From assembly GCA_943359345.1 (NCBI GenBank), contig CALRHE010000004.1, positions 1-59,600 on the forward strand: a stretch of DNA of 59,600 nt, in the 5' to 3' direction. Below are positions 4,118-18,016 of the stretch, piece by piece. The position numbers and the translations under genes are program-made. This DNA comes from Candidatus Uhrbacteria bacterium (GTDB lineage: Bacteria; Patescibacteriota; Patescibacteriia; UBA9934). Below the pieces are notes generated by a model. That model was not told the origin of the DNA. It saw only the letters and a list, made by a program, of their open reading frames with translations, and searched no databases. Numbering within the stretch: position 1 is the first letter of the stretch; each line of letters starts with the position of its first letter.

Positions 4118-5731
4118 CTATAAATCTGTTCCAGCACAACTTAAACCTAAAGATTGGCTGCACAGCGGAAAATCTGAAACAATATTCCCTGGTGCTATTT
4201 CGCCTAACAATGGCCAGTTACAAAACGATGGGTCACGAATAACGTAACGTTCGATTCTACCTGACTTAAGATAAACAAGGTGCAGAATTTCGCCGCGACC
4301 ATTCTCCACTGCACCTAGGTCACGACCATCCTTAGGTTCACAAGGCATTAGATGGGCACCTTCGCCTGGATTCTTGCACAATTCTTGGATCAATCTTTGG
4401 CTGTCTTTTAACTCGTCAACCCGAAGCATGAAACGGGCATAAACATCGCCCGTTACCTTGATGGGTACTGTGGGTAGGAAACGCCCATAGGCAGCGTACG
4501 GGTGGTCACGACGTACATCCCGATCAATTCCAGAAGCTCGGGCTGCAATGCCTACAGCACCGTAGGCTAAACCGGCTTCCTTGCTTAAAATACCTATATT
4601 CTCAAGCCGGTCACGTAAACCATCTGACTGGATAGCGAGACTTACCACATCCAGCATCTCATCAATTATCTCACCCATGACAATCGAAATCTTTTGAAAT
4701 TCATTAGCCTGAAAGTCACGCGACACGCCTCCAGGCACAATTAAGCCTCGCCAAAAACGGTTACCTAACAGCTCATCAGACAAGCGCACAACCTGCTCCT
4801 TGAGCCTAAAACCCTGAGATGATAAAAGCGTATACCCGGCGCCCAGGCCGCCAATCGTGGCCAGGTCAGAAATATGCATGGTTACGCGTTCAAGTTCATT
4901 CACGAGCGAACGTAAACTCTGGGCCCGTATAGACACCTTGCAAGCCGCCAAATTCTCAATTGCTTGTGCAAAGGCAAGGGCGTGCGAGGCAGCGGAGTCA
5001 CCACAAATATGCTCCACTAGCGTTAATGCTTCAGGTAGATTTTTACCTTCCAATAATTTTTCAACACCTTTATGAGTGAAAAAAAACTTACTCTCAAGGG
5101 CTATCATCCGCTCACCAGCTACGTTTAAACGAAAATGTGCGGGCTCACTAATACCCCCATAAACAGGTCCGAGTGGAATTTCAACAACACCCTCACCTAT
5201 CACAAACGGCATCGGATAAGCTATGTCGGCCGTCTCCATTTTAGCGTTCCACATAAAATCCTTGCGGAGCGGAAAATGTCCTTCCGGTACATTTTCATGG
5301 TGAACCAAACGTCGTGGGTCAGGATGACCAACTGCCTCAATACCGAACATGTCTTGAATAAATCTTTCGAACCAATGGGCCGCCATGACGCGACGTGTAA
5401 CCGATGGGTAGCTTAGATCTTCAGGCTGCAAACGTGTGGACAATAAAAACCAGGTCTGACTTGTGTCATCGTGCAGCAAAGCGTGCACACCATAACTACC
5501 CGCGCTAGTCCGATCATCAGTTGCGTACAGGTGTGCCAAAGCTAAACCAACGCCCACCAAACCGCTGACATCCAAGCTCATGCTCAGCTGCGTGGTTAGG
5601 CCCCTGACATTCACCAGTTCATCAATAATGTCGGCAAATTTTTCGCGCGGCACACTGGCGAAAACAAGGTCAGACCTGTCTGCCTGAATATGTAGGCCAA
5701 GCACGTTGCCCAAGAATTCTTTAAGGCTCAT
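4118..5731 (-). CDS. hyfG: Group-4 hydrogenase-related (Ehr) large subunit, HycE/HyfG-like NuoC+NuoD fusion, lacking NiFe-binding CxxC motifs
   Basis: WFERFIQDMFGI..GHPDPRRL, FPLRKDF, GPVYGGISEPAHFR, THKGVEK, ENGRGE, RDPSF; L1 reads HICGDS and the C-terminus reads DFPLCSQSLGLSCAGTDL (no DPCxxC). Confidence 0.88.
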   Translation of the reverse strand: MSLKEFLGNVLGLHIQADRSDLVFASVPREKFADIIDELVNVRGLTTQLSMSLDVSGLVGVGLALAHLYATDDRTSAGSYGVHALLHDDTSQTWFLLSTRLQPEDLSYPSVTRRVMAAHWFERFIQDMFGIEAVGHPDPRRLVHHENVPEGHFPLRKDFMWNAKMETADIAYPMPFVIGEGVVEIPLGPVYGGISEPAHFRLNVAGERMIALESKFFFTHKGVEKLLEGKNLPEALTLVEHICGDSAASHALAFAQAIENLAACKVSIRAQSLRSLVNELERVTMHISDLATIGGLGAGYTLLSSQGFRLKEQVVRLSDELLGNRFWRGLIVPGGVSRDFQANEFQKISIVMGEIIDEMLDVVSLAIQSDGLRDRLENIGILSKEAGLAYGAVGIAARASGIDRDVRRDHPYAAYGRFLPTVPIKVTGDVYARFMLRVDELKDSQRLIQELCKNPGEGAHLMPCEPKDGRDLGAVENGRGEILHLVYLKSGRIERYVIRDPSFCNWPLLGEIAPGNIVSDFPLCSQSLGLSCAGTDL

Positions 5732-7206
5732 AAGAGTCCGGGGTTAAACGACTGGGCTATACCGAGCATAAAGGCTAGCCCGGCTGGAGTGATATAAAAC
5801 ACCCCCAAAGCCACCGCCAAAAGCAGATGTAGACCCATGACTAGGTGAGTTATATTCCAGGGCTCAGCCACCGTGTTTGAGAATCGTCCGGGCGAGGTAA
5901 ATAAGAGCCCGTAAACATTTCTGATCATAGCCACACTAGCCACTACCAGAGCCAATGAAACCACAAGCGTAATTAATACGTGCTCTCTGAGGCCAAAGCC
6001 AATCACCAACATCTGACTCACAAAGACACCTGAGGGCGGGATAGCTGACAGCATGAGTAAAGTCAACAGAAAGAGCAAACCCGTCCTTGGCAACTTTACC
6101 CAAACGTCCTTTATCAGTGATGTATCGGTTGTTTTGTAGGCTGTAACAATCTCGCCAGCCCCAAAAAATAAGCCCGACTTGAGTAAGGCATGTCCGGGCA
6201 TGTGCATGAGCATAGGCACCAAGCCCGCGGGCCCAAGCCCGATTGCCAAAGTCATCAAGCCCATATGTTCAATGCTTGAATAGGCTAGCAAACGTTTATA
6301 GTTTTTCTGAAGCATTAGGCTGAGCGCGGGCACAACGATGGATAAGCAGCCGAAGACTAAAAACAGTCTGCCTGTCCAAACACCATTATCCATGAAAGCC
6401 AGATCAGCAACTTGTCGAAAGCGTAAAAGTGAGACCAGAGCCACATTCAGTAATACGCCAGATAACAAGGCCGAGATTGGCGCTGGTGTCTTGCTGTGTG
6501 CATCTGGTAGCCAGGTGTGCATTGGGACTAAGCCGATCATGGTTCCGATACCCATAAACACAAACACAAAAGCCCAGTGCATGATTTGGACATTCATACC
6601 TTGAGCGGCAGCAATATCACGAACAGTAGAGAGTAAGAATGAGCTGCCCACACCACTTTGTCCGGCGGCATAAGCGGTGAGGAAGATTCCGATTAAACAC
6701 AAACTCAAACCCAGAGAACACAAGAGGATTGATTTCCAAGCCGCCTCAAGGGCCGAACGTTTACGGTAGAAAGCTATGAGCAGAATCATTAATAGAGTCG
6801 CGGCTTCGAGTGCTAGCCACAGCAAACCCAGATGATTACTGAGCACAGCTACATACATGGCAGCACTTAACAACGGTGCCAGACTGAAATAACGCCGAAT
6901 ATCAGCGGTTGAAATAATTTGCTCTGCTTGTTCACGGGCCAGGTAACGATAGGCAGCCAGCGTAGCTGAAAATGAAATAAGCGCAATCAAAACCAGATTG
7001 AGTGCTGCAATACCGTCCAGATACCATAAGGACCATGGTCCGATGATTCCAACCTGAGAAAAGCCGGGCCAGGCAATATATATGGCCAGGGCCGAACTAA
7101 TCGCCATGAACATCAAACCCAAATATCGAGCCCGCCGGTCAGAAATTGGCAGGTAAGCCGTAGCTGCAGCGATGCTTAGCACGCCGATCAAGATCAGAGG
7201 CAACAT
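5728..7206 (-). CDS. hyfF: HyfF-like (NuoL/M/N, Mrp antiporter-like) membrane subunit
   Basis: WLALEAATL, HTWLPDAHS, SALLSG, KRLLAYSSIEHMG, KSGLFFGAG. Confidence 0.88.
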   Translation of the reverse strand: MLPLILIGVLSIAAATAYLPISDRRARYLGLMFMAISSALAIYIAWPGFSQVGIIGPWSLWYLDGIAALNLVLIALISFSATLAAYRYLAREQAEQIISTADIRRYFSLAPLLSAAMYVAVLSNHLGLLWLALEAATLLMILLIAFYRKRSALEAAWKSILLCSLGLSLCLIGIFLTAYAAGQSGVGSSFLLSTVRDIAAAQGMNVQIMHWAFVFVFMGIGTMIGLVPMHTWLPDAHSKTPAPISALLSGVLLNVALVSLLRFRQVADLAFMDNGVWTGRLFLVFGCLSIVVPALSLMLQKNYKRLLAYSSIEHMGLMTLAIGLGPAGLVPMLMHMPGHALLKSGLFFGAGEIVTAYKTTDTSLIKDVWVKLPRTGLLFLLTLLMLSAIPPSGVFVSQMLVIGFGLREHVLITLVVSLALVVASVAMIRNVYGLLFTSPGRFSNTVAEPWNITHLVMGLHLLLAVALGVFYITPAGLAFMLGIAQSFNPGLL

Positions 7207-7211
7207 ATTGG

Positions 7212-7874
7212 TTAACCAATTAATTCACGCAATTCACCAGTATCCTCCACTGCGTATAGTTCCTTAAGCCTACGTGCTAATAAACTCATGAGGAGCACCC
7301 CAAGAGTGACAGTGAGGTCAATCCCCAACTCTGCCAAAAGCGGGATCGCCCCCAGTGTAGCTGTAGCCAAAAGCGTGATGCCATTTCCGAGGGTGAAAAA
7401 AGCGATTATCTGCGAATACGGATCGCGGCGCACCATCATCGTGACACTACCTATAAGCATGATTGCAAAGGCTAGACAAATCAAAATCAAGTTGACATCC
7501 GAAACCGCGGGTGCAATCGCTCTAGCCGCCATAACCGCCACTCCTAAGGCCACACCGAAAACAAAGTATGACCCAGCTGAACTAACCAACGATATCAAGC
7601 GACCACTAGTATATGAACGTTTGGCACTGCTAGTAATAATTACGGGAATCAGCATGGCCTTAAAGATTAAAACACAGACAGCATTCAGATAAAGATGTTG
7701 GTCACCGTGAAAGGCTAAACTGCCCAAGAGCAACGCTAGAAACATTGATTGGAGTGCAAAGTAACGCACCATTTGACCTTGACGAAACTTACTACTGCCC
7801 CAAACAGCACACAATAAAAGTGCTACGGCTAAAGCTGTAGTGACGATGTCAAATGAATTTAAGACTGAGGTCAT
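7212..7874 (-). CDS. hyfE: HyfE-like membrane subunit
   Basis: Position between hyfC and hyfF homologs; 'LIFKAMLIP' and 'SQIIAFFTLGNGI' resemble HyfE. Confidence 0.75.
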   Translation of the reverse strand: MTSVLNSFDIVTTALAVALLLCAVWGSSKFRQGQMVRYFALQSMFLALLLGSLAFHGDQHLYLNAVCVLIFKAMLIPVIITSSAKRSYTSGRLISLVSSAGSYFVFGVALGVAVMAARAIAPAVSDVNLILICLAFAIMLIGSVTMMVRRDPYSQIIAFFTLGNGITLLATATLGAIPLLAELGIDLTVTLGVLLMSLLARRLKELYAVEDTGELRELIG

Positions 7875-8824
7875 ATAAGGCGTGACAAGAGTGCTAAGGA
7901 CACACCACCGAGTGCCATAAAGAAGGCGCTCGTTAGAAACTCTTGAATACGATAGAGCCGTACCCTGGCAATGCTAGATTCAAGCAAGGCAATAACAAAC
8001 ATTACCACTAACAACTTGAGCAAGGTTGCTAGAATTACACTGAACACAGTCAGGCCGCTGGATGTAGCTACAAGGATTGGCCAGGGTAATATCAGATTAG
8101 CAAGCAAGAGCACAAACACGGTTAGCTTAAGCGCGGAGGCATATTCAAGCATGGCCAGATACGGACCAGAGTAATCAAAGACCGTGGCTTCATGCATCAT
8201 TGTAAGTTCCAGTTGCGTACCTGGTTCGTCAACTGGATAACGGGCAGTTTCAGCCAAAGCAGTGAGCATGAGTGCAAACCATGACAACACCAAATACGGT
8301 GCCTGAATTAGCAGACCTCCGACCATGACCTGACCGCTAATCACTCCGTCAAGTGTAGATGACCCGGTGGCAAGAACTAAAGCTATAAAAGTCAGAATTA
8401 TGGTGGGCTCAAACAAAGCCGCCAGCGTGATGGCACGGCTGCCACCCAAACCTCCAAACGCACTTCCAGCATCGAACGCACCCATGACCAAAAACGTTGA
8501 ACTCAATAACAGCACAGCCGCGACCACAATAAAATTCGACAGCGCAGTCAAACTCCCGCCTACGGACACAAGCGGTAAAACTAAAGCTAAAAAAATATTC
8601 GATCCCAGCACTGCATAGGGTGTTACGTGCAGCATCCATGAACCGGTACTCGAAATTACGTTCTCCTTTTTCAATAAATTAGCGTATGTAATATAGGGTA
8701 ACCACGGTACAGCCCCATGACGACCTTGCAATCGGGCTTTGAACCAGCGCACGCCACCCACTGACATAGGTGCCAGTGACAAGACAAGGCTTATCTGAAT
8801 TAGACTTAATATGAGCGGGCTCAT
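7871..8824 (-). CDS. hyfC: HyfC/HycD-like (NuoH-like) membrane subunit
   Basis: KARLQGRHG, GSAFGGLGGSR, AETARYPVD, LELTMMHEA..DYSG. Confidence 0.88.
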   Translation of the reverse strand: MSPLILSLIQISLVLSLAPMSVGGVRWFKARLQGRHGAVPWLPYITYANLLKKENVISSTGSWMLHVTPYAVLGSNIFLALVLPLVSVGGSLTALSNFIVVAAVLLLSSTFLVMGAFDAGSAFGGLGGSRAITLAALFEPTIILTFIALVLATGSSTLDGVISGQVMVGGLLIQAPYLVLSWFALMLTALAETARYPVDEPGTQLELTMMHEATVFDYSGPYLAMLEYASALKLTVFVLLLANLILPWPILVATSSGLTVFSVILATLLKLLVVMFVIALLESSIARVRLYRIQEFLTSAFFMALGGVSLALLSRLI

Positions 8825-10815
8825 AAGGCAATCATCAGGGTTAAGACCGTGGCTAGTAAAATCAAGCTAATATACGCTTGGAGATTACCACTTTGGAGTC
8901 TTACCACGAGGCTGGCTAGACGTGTAAACCCAGCACCAATAGGCACATACAGCCGGTCGTACCATACCTGATTGATAAGCAATGTCATCGAACGTGCAAC
9001 AATCCAGCGATTATGGGTCGTGACCGGAGTGACATTGACTAGTTTTTTTGTGCGCAGAAAAAAACTAAATAAAAATCTGATCGGAGCCGAAAAGGCCGTG
9101 CTCGTGAACTCCATACGTGGAGTTAGAGGCTGGCCACCATCCCAGGTTTGATATTCACGTGTCAGCTTTACATCACTGATCAAGCCACGTATCAACCACA
9201 GACCGAACACCACCACCAGCATAAATAAGGCTAAATCCATCGGTACCAAACTGCCTCCACCAGTGACCAAAATTTGCTGACTAAAGTTGGCTGGCGCTAT
9301 GCCTACAGCTCCAATGCCGTTCAGCACCTGAGGCGCAAATAAACCCAGCATAAGTCCGAGTCCTGACAGTGAAGTTATTGGAAGCAAGAACTCGAGCCCA
9401 GGCTGCATAGCTGCAGCTGCTGGCTCAGAACGAGCTTGTGCTAAAAATGCCATGGCGTACAGCTTCACCATTGCAAATACAGCCAGACCGGTCACAAAAG
9501 TAATGGTGGACACAGTTACCAAGATCATAATCTTGAGCCTCAATGAAGACTCTTCCAAACCGCCCACCATAGCCTGCACAAAAATCCAGTCAGCTATAAA
9601 CGGTGCGAACGGTGGTAAAAAAGCTGCACCCAATATAAGCATGAACACCCCTACAGATAACTGGGGCATGCGCTTCGCCAATCCGCCCATAGCTTCAAGT
9701 CTGCGACTACGAGCGGCCGCCACTAGCACACCTGAAGCCAGGAATAATCCAGACTGACACACGGCCTGGGCCAGCATCAAAAATATCGCAGCGTACACCG
9801 CAGCCTGGGCCAGGACCAGATTCCCCTCTTGTCCAGCCAGTAACGCCAAGCCAAGCATAGTAAACATGATCCCAAAATTCTGAATACTCGTGTAAGCTAA
9901 TAAACGTGTGATGTCGCGCTCAAGCACGGAATATAAAACGCCTACAACTGCGGACAGTAAGCCCAGAAAAAACACTGTAAACACTGCCCACATCGGAACT
10001 CCTGGCAGTAAGAACAGAAAAACTCTTAAAAAACCATACACGGCAATGTTTAGCATGGCTCCGGATAACAGCGCTGAGACCTGGGTTGGAACTTGGGAGT
10101 GAACCTCTGGCAACCAAACGTGGAATGGAACCAAACCAGCCTTGCACCCGAAGCCAAAAATTAGGAGTCCAATGGCTACAAATAAACTGACCTGAGGAAG
10201 ATCGGCAGTCATTTGAGCTAAGACTGAAAAATTATTCAGTAAGGCTCCACCAGACAACAGGAAAAGTCCAGCCATGATGGCGCTCGTACTCAGATGAGCC
10301 AAGATCAAGTACAAAAACCCAGCTTTACGTGAGACCGCCTTGCCATCAGCCAGGATGAGAAAGAACAGGGTTATCGACATGATCTCCCAGAAAGTCATGA
10401 AGCCGAAAATATTTGTTGATAAAATAACGCCTTGCATGCCAAAGATAAACACCGCCGTTAGGATGTTCACATTCCGAATATTGTAGTTATCTGGTTGCTG
10501 TTCAAGGTACGGAATCGCGTACGCGGCTGCAAAAAAACTTATTCCTGACACGAGTGTATAAAAAATCGCTGAAAACCGATCAAGACTGAAATTCATGCCA
10601 TAAAATACCGGCCACAGACTGGCAGAAGGTAAAATCAACGGTTCGGTAGCAGTGGCTATAAATATACCCACCACCGCTCCCATAAGGGCGCACACAGCTA
10701 CGATCAGGTTACTCAACCGATGCGCATGACGGTTGGGCAAGCTTGCTACCACCGCTGCCAGGGCCATACCTAGGAACGAGGCTAGTAGCATAATCGCCAG
10801 GGCTTGCATAGTCAT
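8821..10815 (-). CDS. hyfB: HyfB/HycC-like (NuoL-like) antiporter-type membrane subunit
   Basis: FWEIMS, KAGLVPFHVWLPEVH, LLAYTS, LGGL-like 'AMGGLAKRMP', C-terminal RLQSGNLQAYI. Confidence 0.88.
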   Translation of the reverse strand: MTMQALAIMLLASFLGMALAAVVASLPNRHAHRLSNLIVAVCALMGAVVGIFIATATEPLILPSASLWPVFYGMNFSLDRFSAIFYTLVSGISFFAAAYAIPYLEQQPDNYNIRNVNILTAVFIFGMQGVILSTNIFGFMTFWEIMSITLFFLILADGKAVSRKAGFLYLILAHLSTSAIMAGLFLLSGGALLNNFSVLAQMTADLPQVSLFVAIGLLIFGFGCKAGLVPFHVWLPEVHSQVPTQVSALLSGAMLNIAVYGFLRVFLFLLPGVPMWAVFTVFFLGLLSAVVGVLYSVLERDITRLLAYTSIQNFGIMFTMLGLALLAGQEGNLVLAQAAVYAAIFLMLAQAVCQSGLFLASGVLVAAARSRRLEAMGGLAKRMPQLSVGVFMLILGAAFLPPFAPFIADWIFVQAMVGGLEESSLRLKIMILVTVSTITFVTGLAVFAMVKLYAMAFLAQARSEPAAAAMQPGLEFLLPITSLSGLGLMLGLFAPQVLNGIGAVGIAPANFSQQILVTGGGSLVPMDLALFMLVVVFGLWLIRGLISDVKLTREYQTWDGGQPLTPRMEFTSTAFSAPIRFLFSFFLRTKKLVNVTPVTTHNRWIVARSMTLLINQVWYDRLYVPIGAGFTRLASLVVRLQSGNLQAYISLILLATVLTLMIAL

Positions 10816-10818
10816 AGG

Positions 10819-11361
10819 CTAGGCACGGGCTGATTCAAGAGCCTGTAATACACCTCGGAGTATGTTGGTAGGTGAAGGCGGGTCGCCAGGAATGCGCACG
10901 TGGACCGGAATAACTGCATCAACTGGACCAACTACGGCATAAGAGTCTTTCCAAAGGCCGCCAGCACACGCCCCATCACCAATCGCGACTACTAGGCAAG
11001 GTTGCGGGGCGGCTGCATAGGTAGTCCTTAGGGCTCGTTCCATGTTCCGAGTCACTGGCCCAGTCACAAATAATATATCGGCGTGTCTGGGTGAGGCTAC
11101 GAAACTTAAGCCGAATCGTTCAAGATCGTAATAAGCATTACTAAGCGCACTCAGTTCTTGTTCTTCGGCGTTGGATGAGCCAGCATTGACTGCACGAATG
11201 CGTAACGCTCGTCCGGAGTACAAGTCCTTAACTACAGCCCTCAAAGCCTCACCCACAACCTCAAAATCATTGGCCTTGACCTGCGTGAAATTTTGCTCGT
11301 GCAAAGTGACCCTCGGTCCAAAAAACAGCAAATTCAGCAGGCGTAACAGCGTCATATGCAA
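10819..11361 (-). CDS. hyfI: HycG/HyfI-like (NuoB-like) small subunit with the Fe-S cysteines substituted
   Basis: YYDLERFG, FVASPRHADILFVTGPVTRNM; motifs read GSSNAE, GDGAC and IPGDPP in place of GSCNGC, GDCA and GCPP. Confidence 0.88.
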   Translation of the reverse strand: MHMTLLRLLNLLFFGPRVTLHEQNFTQVKANDFEVVGEALRAVVKDLYSGRALRIRAVNAGSSNAEEQELSALSNAYYDLERFGLSFVASPRHADILFVTGPVTRNMERALRTTYAAAPQPCLVVAIGDGACAGGLWKDSYAVVGPVDAVIPVHVRIPGDPPSPTNILRGVLQALESARA

Positions 11362-11379
11362 AAGTCTGTGAATGACCGA

Positions 11380-11408
11380 AGTTTACGCCCCGGGTCTAGA
11401 TGTGGCAA
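11380..11408 (-). promoter_or_regulatory. Putative sigma70 promoter for the hyf/ehr cluster
   Basis: Minus strand TTGCCA (11408-11403), 17 nt, TAAACT (11385-11380), about 20 nt before the hyfI start. Confidence 0.5.
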
Positions 11409-11418
11409 TAACCCTGGC

Positions 11419-11844
11419 CTAGCGTCGACGTTGGCCCTTAACGGCCACGCGATAGCGGGCTAATTCACGTTCTAGATGAGCGGCTGCGCTTGCAAAAGAC
11501 ACGTCTTCACGGTTACGAATATTTTTCAAAGCCTCTTCGGCTAAACGTTTAGCTGTTTCAATTTTTTCAAGCTCAAGTTCCTCAGATCTTTCCGCCGTAT
11601 TAGCCAAAATTACGATCTGATTATTCTTTTTAACCTCAAGTAAACCGGTCGAGACCGCCAAGAGCTCCTCCTTACCCTCCAGAGTTCTCACGCGCATCTC
11701 TCCCGCCTTCAAAAGTGAAGCCAGCGGAATATGACCGGGCAAAACCGTAATCTCGCCGTCTTCGGTCATAACCGAAAGCGACGTAGCCTCACCCTCGAGG
11801 ACTACTCGTTCAGGGGTGATGATTTTGTAGGTGAGGTTCTTCAT
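11419..11844 (-). CDS. atpC: ATP synthase F1 epsilon subunit
   Basis: IITPER, GEITVLPGHIPL, C-terminal helical hairpin. Confidence 0.95.
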   Translation of the reverse strand: MKNLTYKIITPERVVLEGEATSLSVMTEDGEITVLPGHIPLASLLKAGEMRVRTLEGKEELLAVSTGLLEVKKNNQIVILANTAERSEELELEKIETAKRLAEEALKNIRNREDVSFASAAAHLERELARYRVAVKGQRRR

Positions 11845-11862
11845 ACTTGTGGCAGGGTGTTT

Positions 11863-11973
11863 AGATATTAGGAATTAGATATTAGTAAGAATGTAGAAGT
11901 TTGATCTTAGACTAACTGCAGCCCCCTAACTTCTAAAGTCTAAGCTCTTACTAATATCTAATTCCTAATATCT
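11863..11973. repeat. Perfect 28-bp inverted repeat built from 7-nt units in the atpD-atpC spacer
   Basis: agatattaggaattagatattagtaaga (11863-11890) and its exact reverse complement (11946-11973). Confidence 0.9.
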
Positions 11974-11983
11974 TCATCTAGTA

Positions 11984-14216
<2,233 letters not shown>

Positions 14217-14224
14217 AGACCGAT

Positions 14225-14298
14225 GGGGTTAACGGGGTTGAGGGGGTTGATGATGGCACACCGGACCTCGGTGAACAGTCAACTGTCAACGGTAAACG
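14225..14298. repeat. Three 9-nt units (ggggttRaN) plus four 7-nt units (gtNaacN) in the atpA-atpG spacer
   Basis: ggggttaac ggggttgag ggggttgat (14225-14251); gtgaaca gtcaact gtcaacg gtaaacg (14271-14298). Confidence 0.7.
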
Positions 14299-14300
14299 AA

Positions 14301-15800
14301 TTACTTAAATGTTGAAACAAAATCTTTGATGTGCTTTTCAAGATCGCCCTGTACTTCCTTAACGTCGCGGCTGTCGAAAATAGCCTTCAAAGTCTCGCCA
14401 CCAAGACCCTGCATGTACTTGATGAGCTCAGCCTCGAAGCGATGCACCTCGGCCACCGCGATGTCGTCGATGTAACCATTGTTGAGCGCAAACATAATCA
14501 CTGACTGCTCAGCAAACGACATCGGGGAGTATTGCTTTTGCTTCATGACCTCCATGGCCCGACGACCACGTTCGATCTGCTGCTTGGTGGCCTCGTCGAG
14601 GTCGGTGGCAAACTGGGCAAAGGCTTCGAGCTCGCGATATTGAGCTAGGTCGACCTTCAGCGTCTTAGCCACAGCCTTCATAGCCTTGGTCTGAGCAGCC
14701 GAGCCCACGCGTGACACCGAGTTACCAATGTTCACAGCCGGACGCTGACCACGGTAGAAGAGATCGCTCTCCAAGAAAATTTGACCATCGGTAATTGAAA
14801 TCACGTTTGTCGGAATGTAGGCCGAGATATCACCACCTTGAGTTTCGATAATCGGTAAGGCCGTAATCGATCCCCCGCCGTTCTCCTTGTTCATGCGAGC
14901 AGAGCGCTCAAGCAAACGAGAGTGTAAGTAGAAGACGTCACCCGGATAAGCTTCGCGTCCCGGTGGACGACGAAGTAAAAGAGAAATTTCGCGGTAGGCC
15001 CAAGCGTGCTTGGACAAATCATCGTAAACTATCAGAACGTCCTCGCCCTTAGCCATGAAGTACTCAGCAATGGCACAACCAGCGTAAGGAGCGATGTAAA
15101 GCATGGCGGCGGGGTCGGAAGCGCCTGCGACCACGATGGTCGTGTACTCCATAGCCCCGGCCTTCTCAAGACGCGTACGAATCTGAGCCACCTTAGATTC
15201 CTTTTGACCGATAGCCACGTAGACGCACTTAGTGTTCTCACCCTTCTGGTTCAAAATCGTGTCAATAGCGATGGCGGTCTTACCCGTTTGGCGGTCACCG
15301 ATGATAAGCTCGCGTTGTCCGCGACCGATCGGGATCAGTGCATCGATTGCCTTAATACCGGTGTGCATCGGCACGCCCACTGACTGGCGGGTCATAACGC
15401 CTGGAGCAACCTTTTCGATCGGTACAAACTCGGCGTTAGCAATAGCGCCCTTGCCATCCACTGGATTACCGAGCGAGTCAACCACGCGACCAACAATACT
15501 ATCGGCAACAGGGATCGAAAGAATACGGCCGGTTGAACGCACGGTGTCGCCAGCCTTCACGGCCCAAGCGTCGCCAAGCAAAATTGCCCCGGTAGTTTCT
15601 TCCTCAAGGTTTAAAGCTACACCAAACACACCCGACCCAAAGTCCAACATTTCTTGGCTCTTCACGCTAGACAAACCGCTCATACGGGCCACGCCATCGG
15701 AAACCGAAACGACTGTGCCCACGCGCTCTTCATGCGCTTCGGCTTTAAAGGCCTCAACCTGCTTGCGCAGAGCCTCGATGATGTCCATTTTCTTTGCCAT
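14301..15800 (-). CDS. atpA: ATP synthase F1 alpha subunit
   Basis: [31 protein letters not shown]. Confidence 0.99.
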
Positions 15801-15803
15801 AAT

Positions 15804-16187
15804 TTAGGAAAGTAACGCTTGTTTCAAACGCGTAAGAGCTCCGAGCACGGTGCCGTCAATGCGTCGCTCATCGAGCCGAATGAGGGCACCGCCCATCAGC
15901 CGCTCGTCGACCAACCGCTGAACTTCAGCCCCATTGGCGAGTTGTTCGATTTTTTCCATGGCCTTGTCCGTGAGTGGATGAGCCGAGGCGATGGTGATCT
16001 TTGAAGCTCCGTATTTTTCGCGCCAGGCTTCGTTAAGCTCACGCTCCAAATCACGCCAACGTCCGAGCAAACCCTTGCTGGCCAAGTAGGTCACGACCTC
16101 GGCCATGTGCCTATCAATATCCTTAGCCGTTTTGCCCTCGAGCTCGTTAACCAAGGTACGAGCAATCCCGCGCATGCTTTTCTTCAT
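15804..16187 (-). CDS. atpH: ATP synthase delta subunit (short form)
   Basis: Operon position; 'VDERLMGGALIRLDERRIDGTV' OSCP C-terminal motif. Confidence 0.88.
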   Translation of the reverse strand: MKKSMRGIARTLVNELEGKTAKDIDRHMAEVVTYLASKGLLGRWRDLERELNEAWREKYGASKITIASAHPLTDKAMEKIEQLANGAEVQRLVDERLMGGALIRLDERRIDGTVLGALTRLKQALLS

Positions 16188-16190
16188 ACG

Positions 16191-16763
16191 CTAGGTGAGT
16201 TTACGTACCATTTCTTCAGCCAAAGACTGTGACTTCTTTTCAGTCAAACCTTCGGTGACGATCTTGGCAGCAGCCTTAACAGCGATGTCAACCAAATCCT
16301 TGCGAGCCGTCATAAGCATGGCCACACGCTCTTCGTCCAGTTGTTGTTTACCCCTCTGGATAACGCGCTCAACCTCACGCTTGGCGGCCTCAACCATCTC
16401 GTTCTTACGGGCTTCAGTGTCAGCCACGGCTTTGTCGATGATCGCTTGAGCTTCGCCACGAGCCGCCACCACAATTTTCTGGTGTTCGACCTCAGCGTCA
16501 CGCAAGCGTTTCTCGATGGCCTCAGCATTCTTCACGCTTTCAGCGATCTTCTGTTCGCGCTCTTCGAGCAGGCGCATGATTGGCTTGTAGGCAAAGCGCC
16601 ACAAGACCAGCAACACCAATAAGAAGTTCACGAGCTGGGCCGCAAATAAATCGCCGCGCAACCCAAAAGTACCGATCACACCCTCAAGCCCACCCTCTTC
16701 AGAGTGTTCTTGAGTAGCGGTAGTGGTCGTGACTGCGTCCTCGGTGGTAGTTGACATACGCAA
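16191..16763 (-). CDS. atpF: ATP synthase Fo b subunit
   Basis: AQLVNFLLVLLVLWRFAYKPI, LEEREQKI, coiled coil. Confidence 0.95.
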   Translation of the reverse strand: MRMSTTTEDAVTTTTATQEHSEEGGLEGVIGTFGLRGDLFAAQLVNFLLVLLVLWRFAYKPIMRLLEEREQKIAESVKNAEAIEKRLRDAEVEHQKIVVAARGEAQAIIDKAVADTEARKNEMVEAAKREVERVIQRGKQQLDEERVAMLMTARKDLVDIAVKAAAKIVTEGLTEKKSQSLAEEMVRKLT

Positions 16764-16779
16764 ACGTTAAACGCAAGAA

Positions 16780-17010
<231 letters not shown>

Positions 17011-17020
17011 TTAATTATCC

Positions 17021-17048
17021 GAACCTTGAACACTGGACATTGAACATG
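17021..17048. repeat. Four 7-nt units in the atpB-atpE spacer
   Basis: gaacctt gaacact ggacatt gaacatg. Confidence 0.55.
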
Positions 17049-17143
17049 AAAAGTTTGCTCAATGTTGAAGGTTAAAGATTCGGTGAGAGTTGAGGTCTCT
17101 CCGTAGAATCACCGTGCTCGATGACGCTGCGGAGGTACCCCAC

Positions 17144-18016
17144 TTAGGCGTGGGCTGGAGCGTGTTCTTTATCATGATTTTCCTCCTCATGTCCATGTTC
17201 CATGGTCGCCACCGTCAGGAACACCAAGACCAGCAATGCGAAAACTGTGGCCTGAATGACGCCCACGAGAATTTCAAGGAACATGAACGGAATCGGGATC
17301 ACAAATGACGCCAAACTGAGCATGACGCCAATCAAAATTTCACCAGCAAAAACGTTGCCAAACAAACGCAGTGACAACGAAGCGATACGCGCAGCCTCGC
17401 CGATGATCTCGAGCAAACCGACGAAGAACTCAATAATAGCAACGCCGATAGCGACCGGACCTTTAGGGATAGCTCGGAAGATGCCTCGAATATTAATAAA
17501 TTTACTCACGTAGTTTACAAAACCCACGCCGCGGACGCCAGCCAGCTGCACAATCACCACCGAGAAAACCGCCAAGGCTAAAGTGAGGTTCAGATCGGAC
17601 GTGGCTGGTCGCAACAAGGGAATGAGTTCAACAGCGCCATGAACCTCTCCATAAAAACCGATTGTGCCCGTACCTGGAATGAGTCCCAACCAGTTATTCG
17701 CCAGAATGAACAAAAACAAGGTCGCAACCAGTGGGAAAAAGACTTTGGTCTTTTTGTGATCACCGGTGACCTTGTCCATTTCGTCCATCATGAAAACCAC
17801 GATGGTCTCAAACACATTGTGAATACCCCGAGGCACAAGCGAGGTACGACGCGAAGCGACGGCGGCAATCAGGAGAAAAACCAGCGTCACGATCCAAGCA
17901 TTGAGCATGGTGTTCGTGACTGGAAAATTACCCAGCTGAAAAATTGGTTCAGCGGCTAGCGCTGCCCCCAGAACCGGGAGGTTTAATGTCCGTAAGTTTT
18001 TTATACTCTGTGCCAT
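17144..18016 (-). CDS. atpB: ATP synthase Fo a subunit
   Basis: AAEPIF, NNWLGLIPG, RPATSDLN, SLSLRLFGNVFAGE, IQATVFALL. Confidence 0.97.
   Translation of the reverse strand: MAQSIKNLRTLNLPVLGAALAAEPIFQLGNFPVTNTMLNAWIVTLVFLLIAAVASRRTSLVPRGIHNVFETIVVFMMDEMDKVTGDHKKTKVFFPLVATLFLFILANNWLGLIPGTGTIGFYGEVHGAVELIPLLRPATSDLNLTLALAVFSVVIVQLAGVRGVGFVNYVSKFINIRGIFRAIPKGPVAIGVAIIEFFVGLLEIIGEAARIASLSLRLFGNVFAGEILIGVMLSLASFVIPIPFMFLEILVGVIQATVFALLVLVFLTVATMEHGHEEENHDKEHAPAHA

Follow-up and report, generated by a model that had tools for sequence, protein, structure and literature searches.

The window, a stretch of 59,600 nucleotides from a freshwater Patescibacterium, encodes an Ehr-type, complex-I-like membrane complex of six subunits that has neither a NiFe site nor [4Fe-4S] ligands, and that is devoid of about half of the charged residues used for proton movement in such machines. 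According to mutagenesis and structural work on complex I, Mrp, MBH and FHL, the lost residues form the proton relay. Their erosion is limited to one small Patescibacterial subclade, in which it is derived and lineage-specific, and the Ehr operon is still under purifying selection. Judging from sequence comparisons, we lean towards a lineage-specific relaxation of ion-relay chemistry in an Ehr complex that was already cofactor-less and that would have been retained for a non-pumping role.

The six ORFs are tightly packed at 4118-11361 on the reverse strand, with a 4-nt overlap at three junctions (Table 1), and their order is common to approximately 70 related loci. All the named sequences among the best 120 HyfF matches and the best 120 HyfB matches are from Patescibacteria, and a concatenated tree built without the Jaffe reference set places the Ehr of the window among Patescibacterial sequences and separate from other Ehr. 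Genes of this kind are currently labeled "hydrogenase 4 subunit" or "proton-conducting transporter."

Table 1. Features of the Ehr locus, in window positions
Feature	Positions	Strand	Basis or remark
NuoC+NuoD/HyfG-like fusion, large subunit	4118..5731	-	Pfam PF00329, PF00346, PF00374
HyfF-like distal antiporter-like subunit	5728..7206	-	Alignments, column counts
HyfE-like small membrane subunit	7212..7874	-	NCBIfam PRK11492, 4.7e-13, below cutoff
HyfC/HycD/NuoH-like membrane anchor	7871..8824	-	Pfam PF00146; PDB phmmer match HycD 7z0s_D, 8e-27
HyfB/HycC-like proximal antiporter-like subunit	8821..10815	-	NCBIfam hydrogenase 4 subunit B, 1.5e-119, below cutoff
TM11 triad codons, HyfB-like	9754..9780	-	L346 9778-9780, Q350 9766-9768, Q354 9754-9756
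N256 codon AAC, HyfB-like	10048..10050	-	Replaces TM8 central Lys
NuoB/HycG-like small subunit	10819..11361	-	Pfam PF01058; aligned with NuoB/HyfI/HycG of E. coli
F1Fo ATP synthase operon (a, c, b, delta, alpha, gamma, beta, epsilon)	11419..18016	-	Directly upstream of Ehr genes

The HyfB-like protein is the most eroded of the six subunits. Relative to the family, it has N256 for Lys, T303 for Lys, Q312 for Glu, L346 and Q350 for His, Q354 for Lys, D409 for Glu and G560 for Cys. Residue roles were taken from the description of HycC/HycD and NuoL/M/N (PMC9474812). Alignment to the E. coli proteins places N256 at the central Lys of TM8 (HyfB K252, HycC K239, NuoM K265) and Q312 at the Glu of TM10 (HyfB E310, HycC E294). 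T303 replaces the N-side Lys (NuoL K305), and the whole His-His-Lys triad of TM11 (HycC H328/H332/K336, NuoL H334/H338/K342) has given way to L346/Q350/Q354; in the outgroup columns H350 and K354 are found in 68/68 and H346 in 63/68. G560 stands in place of the ND3-loop Cys (HycC C537), and D409, which aligns with HyfB E407 and HycC E391, is a conservative replacement. No compensating charges were found in the membrane core of HyfB. We scored an 11-site HyfB signature in 138 representatives (full-length relatives clustered at 50%), of which 132 (96%) show two departures at most, as opposed to eight in the window. Ionisable residues account for a disproportionate share of the losses in this subunit, with 7 of 13 invariant ionisable sites affected vs 14 of 72 non-ionisable ones (p = 0.014). 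Over the complex as a whole there is no such excess, with 41/288 non-ionisable and 16/109 ionisable invariant columns hit (p = 0.87). The fold of the protein is predicted to be intact, including the 14-TM core in which TM7 and TM12 are discontinuous: the AF2 model (pLDDT 85, pTM 0.86) has helix breaks at 227-233 and 398-403, and its best Foldseek match is HycC (7z0s_C, TM 0.83).

The HyfF-like subunit retains most of its axis, namely E134, K158, H230, E313, H314, H339 and K343. The Asn in TM8 (N254) is normal for the family and is also found in E. coli HyfF. Two positions are replaced, the TM7 Lys by M223 (E. coli HyfF K232, NuoM K234) and the TM12 Glu by Q398 (E. coli HyfF E406, NuoM E407). 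As for the pair formed by the TM5 Glu and the TM7 Lys, both residues are present in the HyfB-like protein (E144 and K225), while the HyfF-like one has E134 but M223; HycC likewise is without the TM7 Lys. Along the HycD-type carboxylate chain (HycD E130, E138, E189, E201, E203, E206), the HyfC-like subunit has lost its charge at A131 (E. coli HyfC E138, HycD E130; NuoH has Ala in the same column) and at Q204 (His in the family, HycD E201). E139, E192, E206 and E212 are present, as is D199; D217 is a changed residue (HycD E211), and E200 is new. In the HyfE-like subunit, G163 replaces a family-invariant Glu (43/43; E. coli HyfE E159), E182 is present and D186 has been gained. A phmmer search of the PDB with this protein gave no match, and hhalign aligned it weakly with TM2 of E. 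coli NuoK (probability 19%), with E163 one turn off NuoK E36. HyfC E200 and HyfE D186 are the sole candidates for relocated compensatory charges in the complex. The initial annotation had pointed to six altered motifs, GT-M223-IG and FVS-Q398-M in HyfF, ML-N256-IA, SI-Q312-N and IA-D409-W in HyfB and SR-A131 in HyfC; all are present and align, as it claimed, with the corresponding positions of HyfB/HyfF/HyfC, HycC/HycD and NuoL/M/N from E. coli, and the residues it listed as kept (HyfB E144 and K225, HyfF E134) are indeed there. Nine further substitutions were found, HyfB T303, L346, Q350, Q354 and G560, HyfC Q204 and D217, HyfE G163, and HyfG Y191.

The latter residue, in the large subunit, takes the place of the His of the beta1-beta2 loop (HycE H188). 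This HyfG-like protein nevertheless has 45 of its 47 family-invariant ionisable residues, a loss of 2/47 vs 7/13 in HyfB (p = 1e-4). At the columns of HycE C241/C244/C531/C534 the window reads C/S/S/G and the family S/variable (S, M, A or T)/S/G. The NiFe cysteines are missing throughout the family, and the one Cys at these columns in the window, C243, is derived. In the NuoB-like subunit, changes affect only 2 of 58 family-invariant columns, and the [4Fe-4S] ligand columns hold S63, E66, G130 and D160, with a shifted Cys at C132. These four ligands are absent across a large clade of CPR and Acidobacteriota sequences. The Cys ligands are present in Nitrospirota-type loci, reduced to one in an intermediate CPR clade and all absent from the large clade of the window; the proximal [4Fe-4S] Cys are present in L056, L083 and related loci, which are Nitrospirota/Acidobacteriota-type members. 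Approximately 40 loci of the large clade are without the [4Fe-4S] ligands and yet have every residue of the charge axis, indicating that loss of the redox site is ancient and loss of charges recent. The proposal that the two were lost in a coordinated manner is thus not supported. Patescibacterial Ehr may, as a tentative model, form a cofactor-less class with a perfect relay axis but no redox input, driven by or regulating an ion gradient, in which the subclade of the window would represent a stepwise conversion to a non-translocating but selected complex, the NiFe site going first, then the FeS ligands and then the charge axis.

One trivial explanation is that the substitutions represent ordinary Ehr/Hyf variation, and that the wrong consensus was used for comparison. 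This applies to the TM8 Asn of HyfF, which is family-normal, and HycC without its TM7 Lys and NuoH with Ala at the A131 column offer precedents for two other positions. At each of the remaining positions, 117-137 of the 138 representatives have the family residue, and outside one subclade the eroded columns are invariant in 63-78 related loci (68/68, 70/70, 43/43, 78/78); the departures go beyond chance, so that this explanation is refuted for most sites and is highly improbable overall. The question raised by the initial annotation, whether the altered residues are normal in Hyf/Ehr subunits, is mostly answered in the negative. The signature EKHKKEHHKE / EHE / E / EKKHNEHKE is likewise unchanged in approximately 63 loci outside the subclade. 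Within it, H346 of HyfB is replaced throughout, K256 was lost independently at least five times, to N, S, T, A or G, and erosion is heavy in at least four lineages. The replacements differ between lineages, with A312, V354, G409 and L223 in L094 and G256 in L093. A sequencing or assembly artefact was rejected, since independent assemblies of strains that are 99% identical (L084-L087) have identical states.

The window departs from the family-invariant columns at 14.4%, compared with an outgroup median of 1.8%, and L094 and L093 at 22-25%. Such figures could signal early pseudogenisation, i.e., a functionless, drifting operon that has not yet been struck by a frameshift or a stop codon, as could the fact that the acceleration is limited to the Ehr genes. 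Indeed, the identity of AtpA/D/G/C and UvrD to the outgroups is equal in eroded and mildly affected lineages, whereas that of every Ehr subunit is lower in the eroded ones, and the window and L094 are 98% identical in AtpA and AtpD vs 45% in HyfB. Because the neighboring genes for ATP synthase and UvrD show no acceleration, the erosion is specific to the Ehr genes. Also in line with decay, atpA and atpD are truncated and highly diverged beside the Ehr operon of L093. Against it, the six ORFs are intact, with their coupled overlaps, in each of at least nine subclade loci as well as in several lake populations, in agreement with the initial annotation, which had described them as full length; the lake metagenome contigs had no indels, which also speaks against a sequencing error. 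At the strain level, pN/pS is 0.11-0.16 for the Ehr genes, no higher than for the flanking ATP-synthase/UvrD genes (0.13), with 29-59 synonymous vs 14-21 non-synonymous changes, and neutrality is rejected (p < 1e-8). This ratio was used for strains only, as synonymous sites are saturated between the window and L088-L094 (pS 0.56-0.87). The ionisable residues of the NuoB-like and HyfG-like subunits are, moreover, almost fully conserved. We thus regard pseudogenisation as improbable. Two metatranscriptomes of samples that hold the organism contained no reads of its own, only 40-nt matches from atpA/atpD of other organisms.

A more serious competitor is that the complex has become a neofunctionalised transporter, for another cation, a solute, or protons moving passively on a water wire, in which the new Asn, Gln, Thr and Asp residues would provide a different binding or conduction path. 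Ongoing purifying selection and the intact predicted fold are compatible with this idea. Of the 14 replacements in the window, nine are polar and Gln is over-represented, new carboxylates have arisen near lost ones (HyfC E200 beside Q204, HyfE D186 after E163G), and HyfF has kept E134, E313/H314 and H339/K343. Convergent redesign would, however, be expected to look different: sister lineages differ from one another at the eroded sites, often with apolar residues, as in L094 and L093, the overall rate of loss is no different for non-ionisable invariant columns (p = 0.87), and the HyfB core has gained no charges. We consider a new transporter rather unlikely, although it is the main alternative. 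The differing replacements of sister lineages, together with non-ionisable columns being hit as often overall, give a pattern like relaxed constraint and not directed redesign. The initial annotation had argued for a changed function as opposed to random decay, and the intact ORFs and low pN/pS agree with the absence of pseudogene decay; the pattern of change does not suggest that residues were replaced toward a new design. The passive, secondary-transport or scaffold role that it proposed would be an extrapolation from sequence.

In the species of the window, as in a small number of sister lineages, the lateral charge relay has been dismantled: the HyfB-like subunit no longer has its central Lys, N-side Lys, TM10 Glu or TM11 triad, and single key residues are missing from the HyfF-, HyfC- and HyfE-like ones. 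In the favored scenario of relaxation, the constraint on ion relay would have been relaxed in the subclade, and the eroded complex would no longer be able to act as a coupled ion translocator of the complex-I/Mrp style. Its residual role might most plausibly be that of a membrane partner, either structural or regulatory, perhaps for the F1Fo ATP synthase encoded next to it, for which the conserved peripheral NuoB/NuoCD-like module would matter more than the HyfB axis. Several points count against the relaxation scenario. A loss of pumping presupposes that the ancestor translocated ions. Many of the replacements are polar and near-isosteric (five Gln, plus Asn, Thr and Asp), and could maintain a hydrated pathway with altered chemistry. 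The axis of HyfF is mostly retained, and HyfC E200 and HyfE D186 are possibly compensatory carboxylates. Single substitutions are not decisive, given that HycC functions with its TM7 Lys missing and that Ala occupies the A131 column in NuoH.

The gap between atpC and the NuoB-like gene is 57 nt, and in at least 25 CPR loci the F1Fo ATP synthase genes are likewise followed immediately by Ehr genes. In the c subunit of the ATP synthase in the window, E59 is followed by Ala and the Gln/Ser/Thr Na+ motif is missing, which we take to denote an H+-type enzyme by motif. The idea of a Na+-coupled ATP synthase that would hint at Na+/H+ antiport was rejected on this basis.

The subclade offers a graded natural series of intact, mildly eroded and heavily eroded complexes in closely related genomes, redox-less and located beside an ATP synthase. 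It would represent a natural example of a pump that turned into something else while still under selection. With this series, one can test the role of a redox-less complex-I-like module in bacteria that have no respiratory chain, and which relay residues the activity of that module requires. The annotation of these genes also needs correction, as neither of their two current labels is justified in this lineage.

The Ehr concept is used here as cited in PMC7304191 and PMC6349859. Like the CPR Ehr of Jaffe et al. (2020; PMC7304191), the complex of the window has a group-4-hydrogenase-like large subunit without metal-binding cysteines, a gene set comprising NuoB-like, NuoH-like, antiporter-like and large subunits, and nearest relatives that are all Patescibacteria. 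Its large subunit is homologous to those of group 4 [NiFe]-hydrogenases and to NuoD but is without the L1/L2 Ni-Fe cysteines, and the same operon encodes the NuoB-like small subunit, the NuoH-like anchor and the antiporter-like subunits. The proximal [4Fe-4S] ligands that Nitrospirota/Acidobacteriota-type members have in the small subunit are replaced in the window (S/E/G/D), and neither the NiFe CxxC pairs nor the proximal [4Fe-4S] cluster of group 4 [NiFe]-hydrogenases is found. As far as we found, the published description of CPR Ehr deals with the phylogeny of the large subunit and its missing NiFe Cys only (PMC7304191), and we found no report in the literature on the membrane-arm residues of CPR Ehr complexes. 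The small subunit without [4Fe-4S] ligands, the family-invariant membrane charge axis and its erosion in one subclade go beyond that description.

The order and types of the four membrane subunits are those of E. coli hydrogenase 4 (Hyf/FHL-2), the NuoC+D-type fusion resembles HyfG, and the best NCBIfam matches of the proteins are Hyf subunits, all below cutoffs. Unlike hydrogenase 4, the complex of the window has no HyfA, HyfD, HyfH, NiFe site or FeS site, and K252, K301, E310, H344, H348, K352 and E407 of E. coli HyfB, and K232 and E406 of HyfF, are all replaced. The best structural and sequence templates are HycC and HycD of E. coli FHL-1 (PDB 7Z0S). HycC is active without the TM7 Lys (L208) (PMC9474812), and it is also without the N-side Lys (Q285); partial loss is therefore compatible with an active enzyme. 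The proteins of the window have lost the equivalents of HycC K239, E294, H328/H332/K336, E391 (to Asp) and C537, and of HycD E130 and E201. With regard to the hallmarks of antiporter-like subunits, the TM8 Lys and the TM11 His/His/Lys are missing from the HyfB-like protein, while H339 and K343 are retained in the HyfF-like one, and the TM12 Lys/Glu is replaced by Q398 in HyfF and, conservatively, by D409 in HyfB. In NuoL/M/N of complex I and in MrpA/D, the proton relay is defined by a central Lys, a His/Lys bridge in TM11 and a Lys/Glu in TM12. The complex of the window is for the most part without these residues and has no redox module as driver; it shares with those subunits the 14-TM core, the broken TM7 and TM12 helices, and the TM5 Glu.

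Pfam and NCBIfam searches place the six Ehr (energy-converting hydrogenase-related, complex-I-like) proteins among the relatives of Hyf and Nuo subunits but not among their equivalogs, because all NCBIfam matches scored far under the curated cutoffs. The closest homologs, wherever named, belong to Patescibacteria (CPR), namely Uhrbacteria, Peregrinibacteria, Gracilibacteria, Moranbacteria and Falkowbacteria, and the organism itself was found in freshwater lake metagenomes in several studies.

Genes of the Ehr operon and its neighborhood
Feature	Coordinates	Strand	Evidence or remark
Six-ORF Ehr operon	4118-11361	-	Three junctions are 4-nt overlaps
NuoB/HycG-like small subunit	10819-11361	-	Pfam, NCBIfam
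HyfB/HycC-like antiporter-like subunit, C-terminal extension	8821-10815	-	Pfam, NCBIfam
HyfC/HycD/NuoH-like anchor	7871-8824	-	Pfam, NCBIfam
HyfE-like small membrane protein	7212-7874	-	Pfam, NCBIfam
HyfF-like antiporter-like subunit	5728-7206	-	Pfam, NCBIfam
NuoC+NuoD/HyfG-like fusion	4118-5731	-	Pfam, NCBIfam
Complete F1Fo ATP synthase operon	11362-18016 region	-	Directly upstream of the Ehr operon, same strand
UvrD/PD-(D/E)XK helicase gene			Downstream of the Ehr operon

Alignment to the E. coli K-12 hyf, hyc and nuo proteins bore out the neutralized residues reported in the initial annotation. In HyfF, M223 corresponds to HyfF K232/NuoM K234 (TM7) and Q398 to HyfF E406/NuoM E407 (TM12). 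In HyfB, N256 stands at HyfB K252/HycC K239/NuoM K265 (TM8), Q312 at HyfB E310/HycC E294, and D409 at HyfB E407/HycC E391 (TM12), and HyfC A131 occupies the position of HyfC E138/HycD E130. HyfB E144 and K225 and HyfF E134 are retained, as had been stated, and HMMER alignments to MbhH and HycD concur with the mappings; the codon coordinates were also confirmed. An unbiased scan of every column with 90% or higher conservation among related operons revealed further losses. HyfB has T303 for the family Lys (NuoL K305, the N-side entry Lys) and L346/Q350/Q354 in place of the complete TM11 triad (HycC H328/H332/K336, NuoL H334/H338/K342). HyfB G560 is found at HycC C537, the ND3-loop Cys, and HyfG Y191 at HycE H188, the beta1-beta2-loop His that packs on HycC C537 in the FHL structure (PMC9474812). 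HyfC Q204 and D217 also depart from the family state, as does HyfE G163 at E. coli HyfE E159; residue equivalence between HyfE and NuoK is weak. The HyfB core contains no new charged residues, and HyfC E200 and HyfE D186 may compensate locally.

We aligned each subunit across approximately 80 operon-bearing loci of species-representative genomes, with nine close relatives added, and inferred a tree from the concatenated subunits. Approximately 63 loci outside one subclade, from several CPR classes, Acidobacteriota, Nitrospirota and others, share an identical signature: E144-K225-H232-K256-K303-E312-H346-H350-K354-E409 in HyfB, E131-H204-E217 in HyfC, E163 in HyfE, and E134-K158-K223-H230-N254-E313-H339-K343-E398 in HyfF, where position 398 may also be K. 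Among 1.84 billion representative proteins, searched exhaustively, we found 138 full-length HyfB relatives, of which 95 have all 11 HyfB signature sites and 132 show at most two departures; only four depart at seven or more sites, and the window protein departs at eight. The family thus keeps a complex-I/Mrp-type charge axis very strictly, and the window residues are not its normal state. Caveats attach to single positions: the HyfF TM8 Asn is both the family and the E. coli state, NuoH has Ala at the HyfC A131 column, and HycC of the active FHL-1 has L208 in place of the TM7 Lys and Q285 in place of the N-side Lys (PMC9474812).

Every eroded sequence belongs to a single monophyletic subclade of Patescibacteria. 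All of its sampled members have another residue in place of H346, consistent with one early loss, and HyfC E217D is common to eight of the nine sampled subclade loci. K256 then gave way to N, S, T, A or G on at least five independent occasions, and heavy erosion with differing replacements occurred in at least four lineages (P0148; P0139/L092; P0142; and the group of the window, P0132 and P0143/L094). This subclade has relaxed the constraint on the axis repeatedly and non-convergently, most of all in the proximal HyfB-like subunit. The main rival explanation, a change in transport chemistry, would fit the many replacements by Gln, Asn, Thr or Asp, but those in sister lineages do not converge and are often apolar.

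The redox sites have another history. None of the loci encodes the NiFe cysteines. For the [4Fe-4S] cluster, members of the Nitrospirota/Acidobacteriota-type clade have Cys at all four ligand columns of the small subunit, those of an intermediate CPR clade have a single one of these Cys left, and those of the large clade containing the window read S/E/G/D without exception, so that this Ehr-type complex has no redox-cofactor site at all. Approximately 40 loci of the large clade have no possible cluster yet a perfect charge axis. The two losses were therefore not coordinated, contrary to the initial proposal.

In the NuoB-like protein (S63, E66, G130, C132 and D160; 10882-11175), carboxylates E66 and D160 are conserved at two of the four lost ligand positions, a conserved Cys appears at +2 (GDGAC), and another lies near residue 121; a remodeled non-FeS metal site is conceivable. 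In the HyfG-like protein, the first NiFe L1 position is Ser in 73 of 74 family members and C243 (5003-5005) in the window lineage, which has thus acquired one "hydrogenase" Cys as a derived state; the remaining three ligand sites are still non-Cys. Six loci from Acidobacteriota MAGs (L032-L035, L040 and L058), with no FeS ligands and an intact axis, are nested within the Patescibacterial clade of the concatenated tree, which suggests lateral transfer between phyla.

The window differs at 57 of 397 family-invariant columns (14.4%), versus an outgroup median of 1.8% that is biased downwards because the columns were outgroup-defined; the mild subclade members (3 to 7%), from which the columns were not defined, are the fairer baseline. 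Two other eroded loci, L093 and L094, reach 22 to 25%. This excess would fit early pseudogenization, as would the finding that losses across the whole complex are not biased to ionizable residues (16/109 versus 41/288, P = 0.87). By subunit, HyfB lost 7/13 invariant ionizable sites versus 14/72 others (P = 0.014) and HyfG showed the opposite (2/47 versus 13/64, P = 0.022), the two differing in ionizable-site losses (P = 1e-4); only 2 of 58 NuoB-like invariant columns changed. Acceleration is specific to the Ehr operon: compared with mild lineages, eroded ones show lower identity to outgroups for every Ehr subunit and equal identity for AtpA, AtpD, AtpG, AtpC and UvrD. Between the window and L094, AtpA and AtpD are 98% identical and HyfB 45%.

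As deep dN/dS is saturated, selection was measured at the strain level. The Ehr operons of the window and of three strains 99% identical to it differ by 29 to 59 synonymous and 14 to 21 nonsynonymous changes. The resulting pN/pS is 0.11 to 0.16, versus 0.13 for the ATP-synthase/UvrD flanks, and neutrality is rejected (P < 1e-8). The operon of this species is thus still under purifying selection, which makes early pseudogenization unlikely. None of the six ORFs is disrupted in any subclade locus, extending the initial observation of full-length ORFs, and no indels were found in the Ehr genes of lake populations. The AlphaFold2 model of the HyfB-like protein (pLDDT 85) has a confident HycC-like fold with both discontinuous helices, its best Foldseek match being 7z0s_C (TM 0.83). 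Relative to strains L085 and L087, the NuoB-like gene has a pS of 0.145, versus approximately 0.01 to 0.04 for the other Ehr genes, with only two nonsynonymous changes, a pattern that resembles a short tract acquired by recombination from a less closely related strain.

In at least 25 Patescibacterial loci of several classes (window, L004-L025, L037, L038, L053, L072, L079 and L084-L094), the atpAGDC genes immediately precede the Ehr operon and share its strand. This adjacency is not present in the non-CPR (Acidobacteriota, Nitrospirota) loci. The conserved neighborhood suggests a functional link to ATP synthase. In L093 (GCA_049296775.1, 3836-5772), which has one of the most eroded Ehr operons, the adjoining genes are 266-residue AtpA-like and 372-residue AtpD-like remnants, only 35 to 44% identical to the window proteins, and gamma and epsilon genes are lacking; the ATP synthase appears to be degenerating there. 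The atpA-atpG spacer differs among strains, 73 nt (14252-14326) being swapped for 25 other letters in one lake population (run X5). In the c subunit (16780-16998), the E59 carboxylate is followed by Ala, without the Gln/Ser/Thr Na+ motif, which we take to indicate a proton-type c ring.

With these losses, the lateral relay that links the E-channel to HyfF by way of HyfB would be broken, so that coupled ion translocation of the complex-I/Mrp kind would no longer be possible. Retention of the complex may reflect a different function, one for which the peripheral NuoB/NuoCD-like module and the general architecture would be important. The most attractive guess is a putative role tied to ATP synthase or gradient handling, given the conserved placement of the Ehr genes immediately after those of the ATP synthase.

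The function of Ehr complexes is regarded as unknown (PMC6349859, PMC10284858). Our literature search found no report on missing FeS ligands in CPR Ehr complexes, on how strictly cofactor-less ones conserve the membrane charge axis, or on erosion of this axis in an Ehr subclade. Ehr large subunits of CPR that form a monophyletic clade, lack the metal-binding cysteines and probably cannot interact with H2 have already been described (Jaffe et al. 2020, PMC7304191). The features reported here bear on complex-I evolution and CPR physiology, and they are directly testable.
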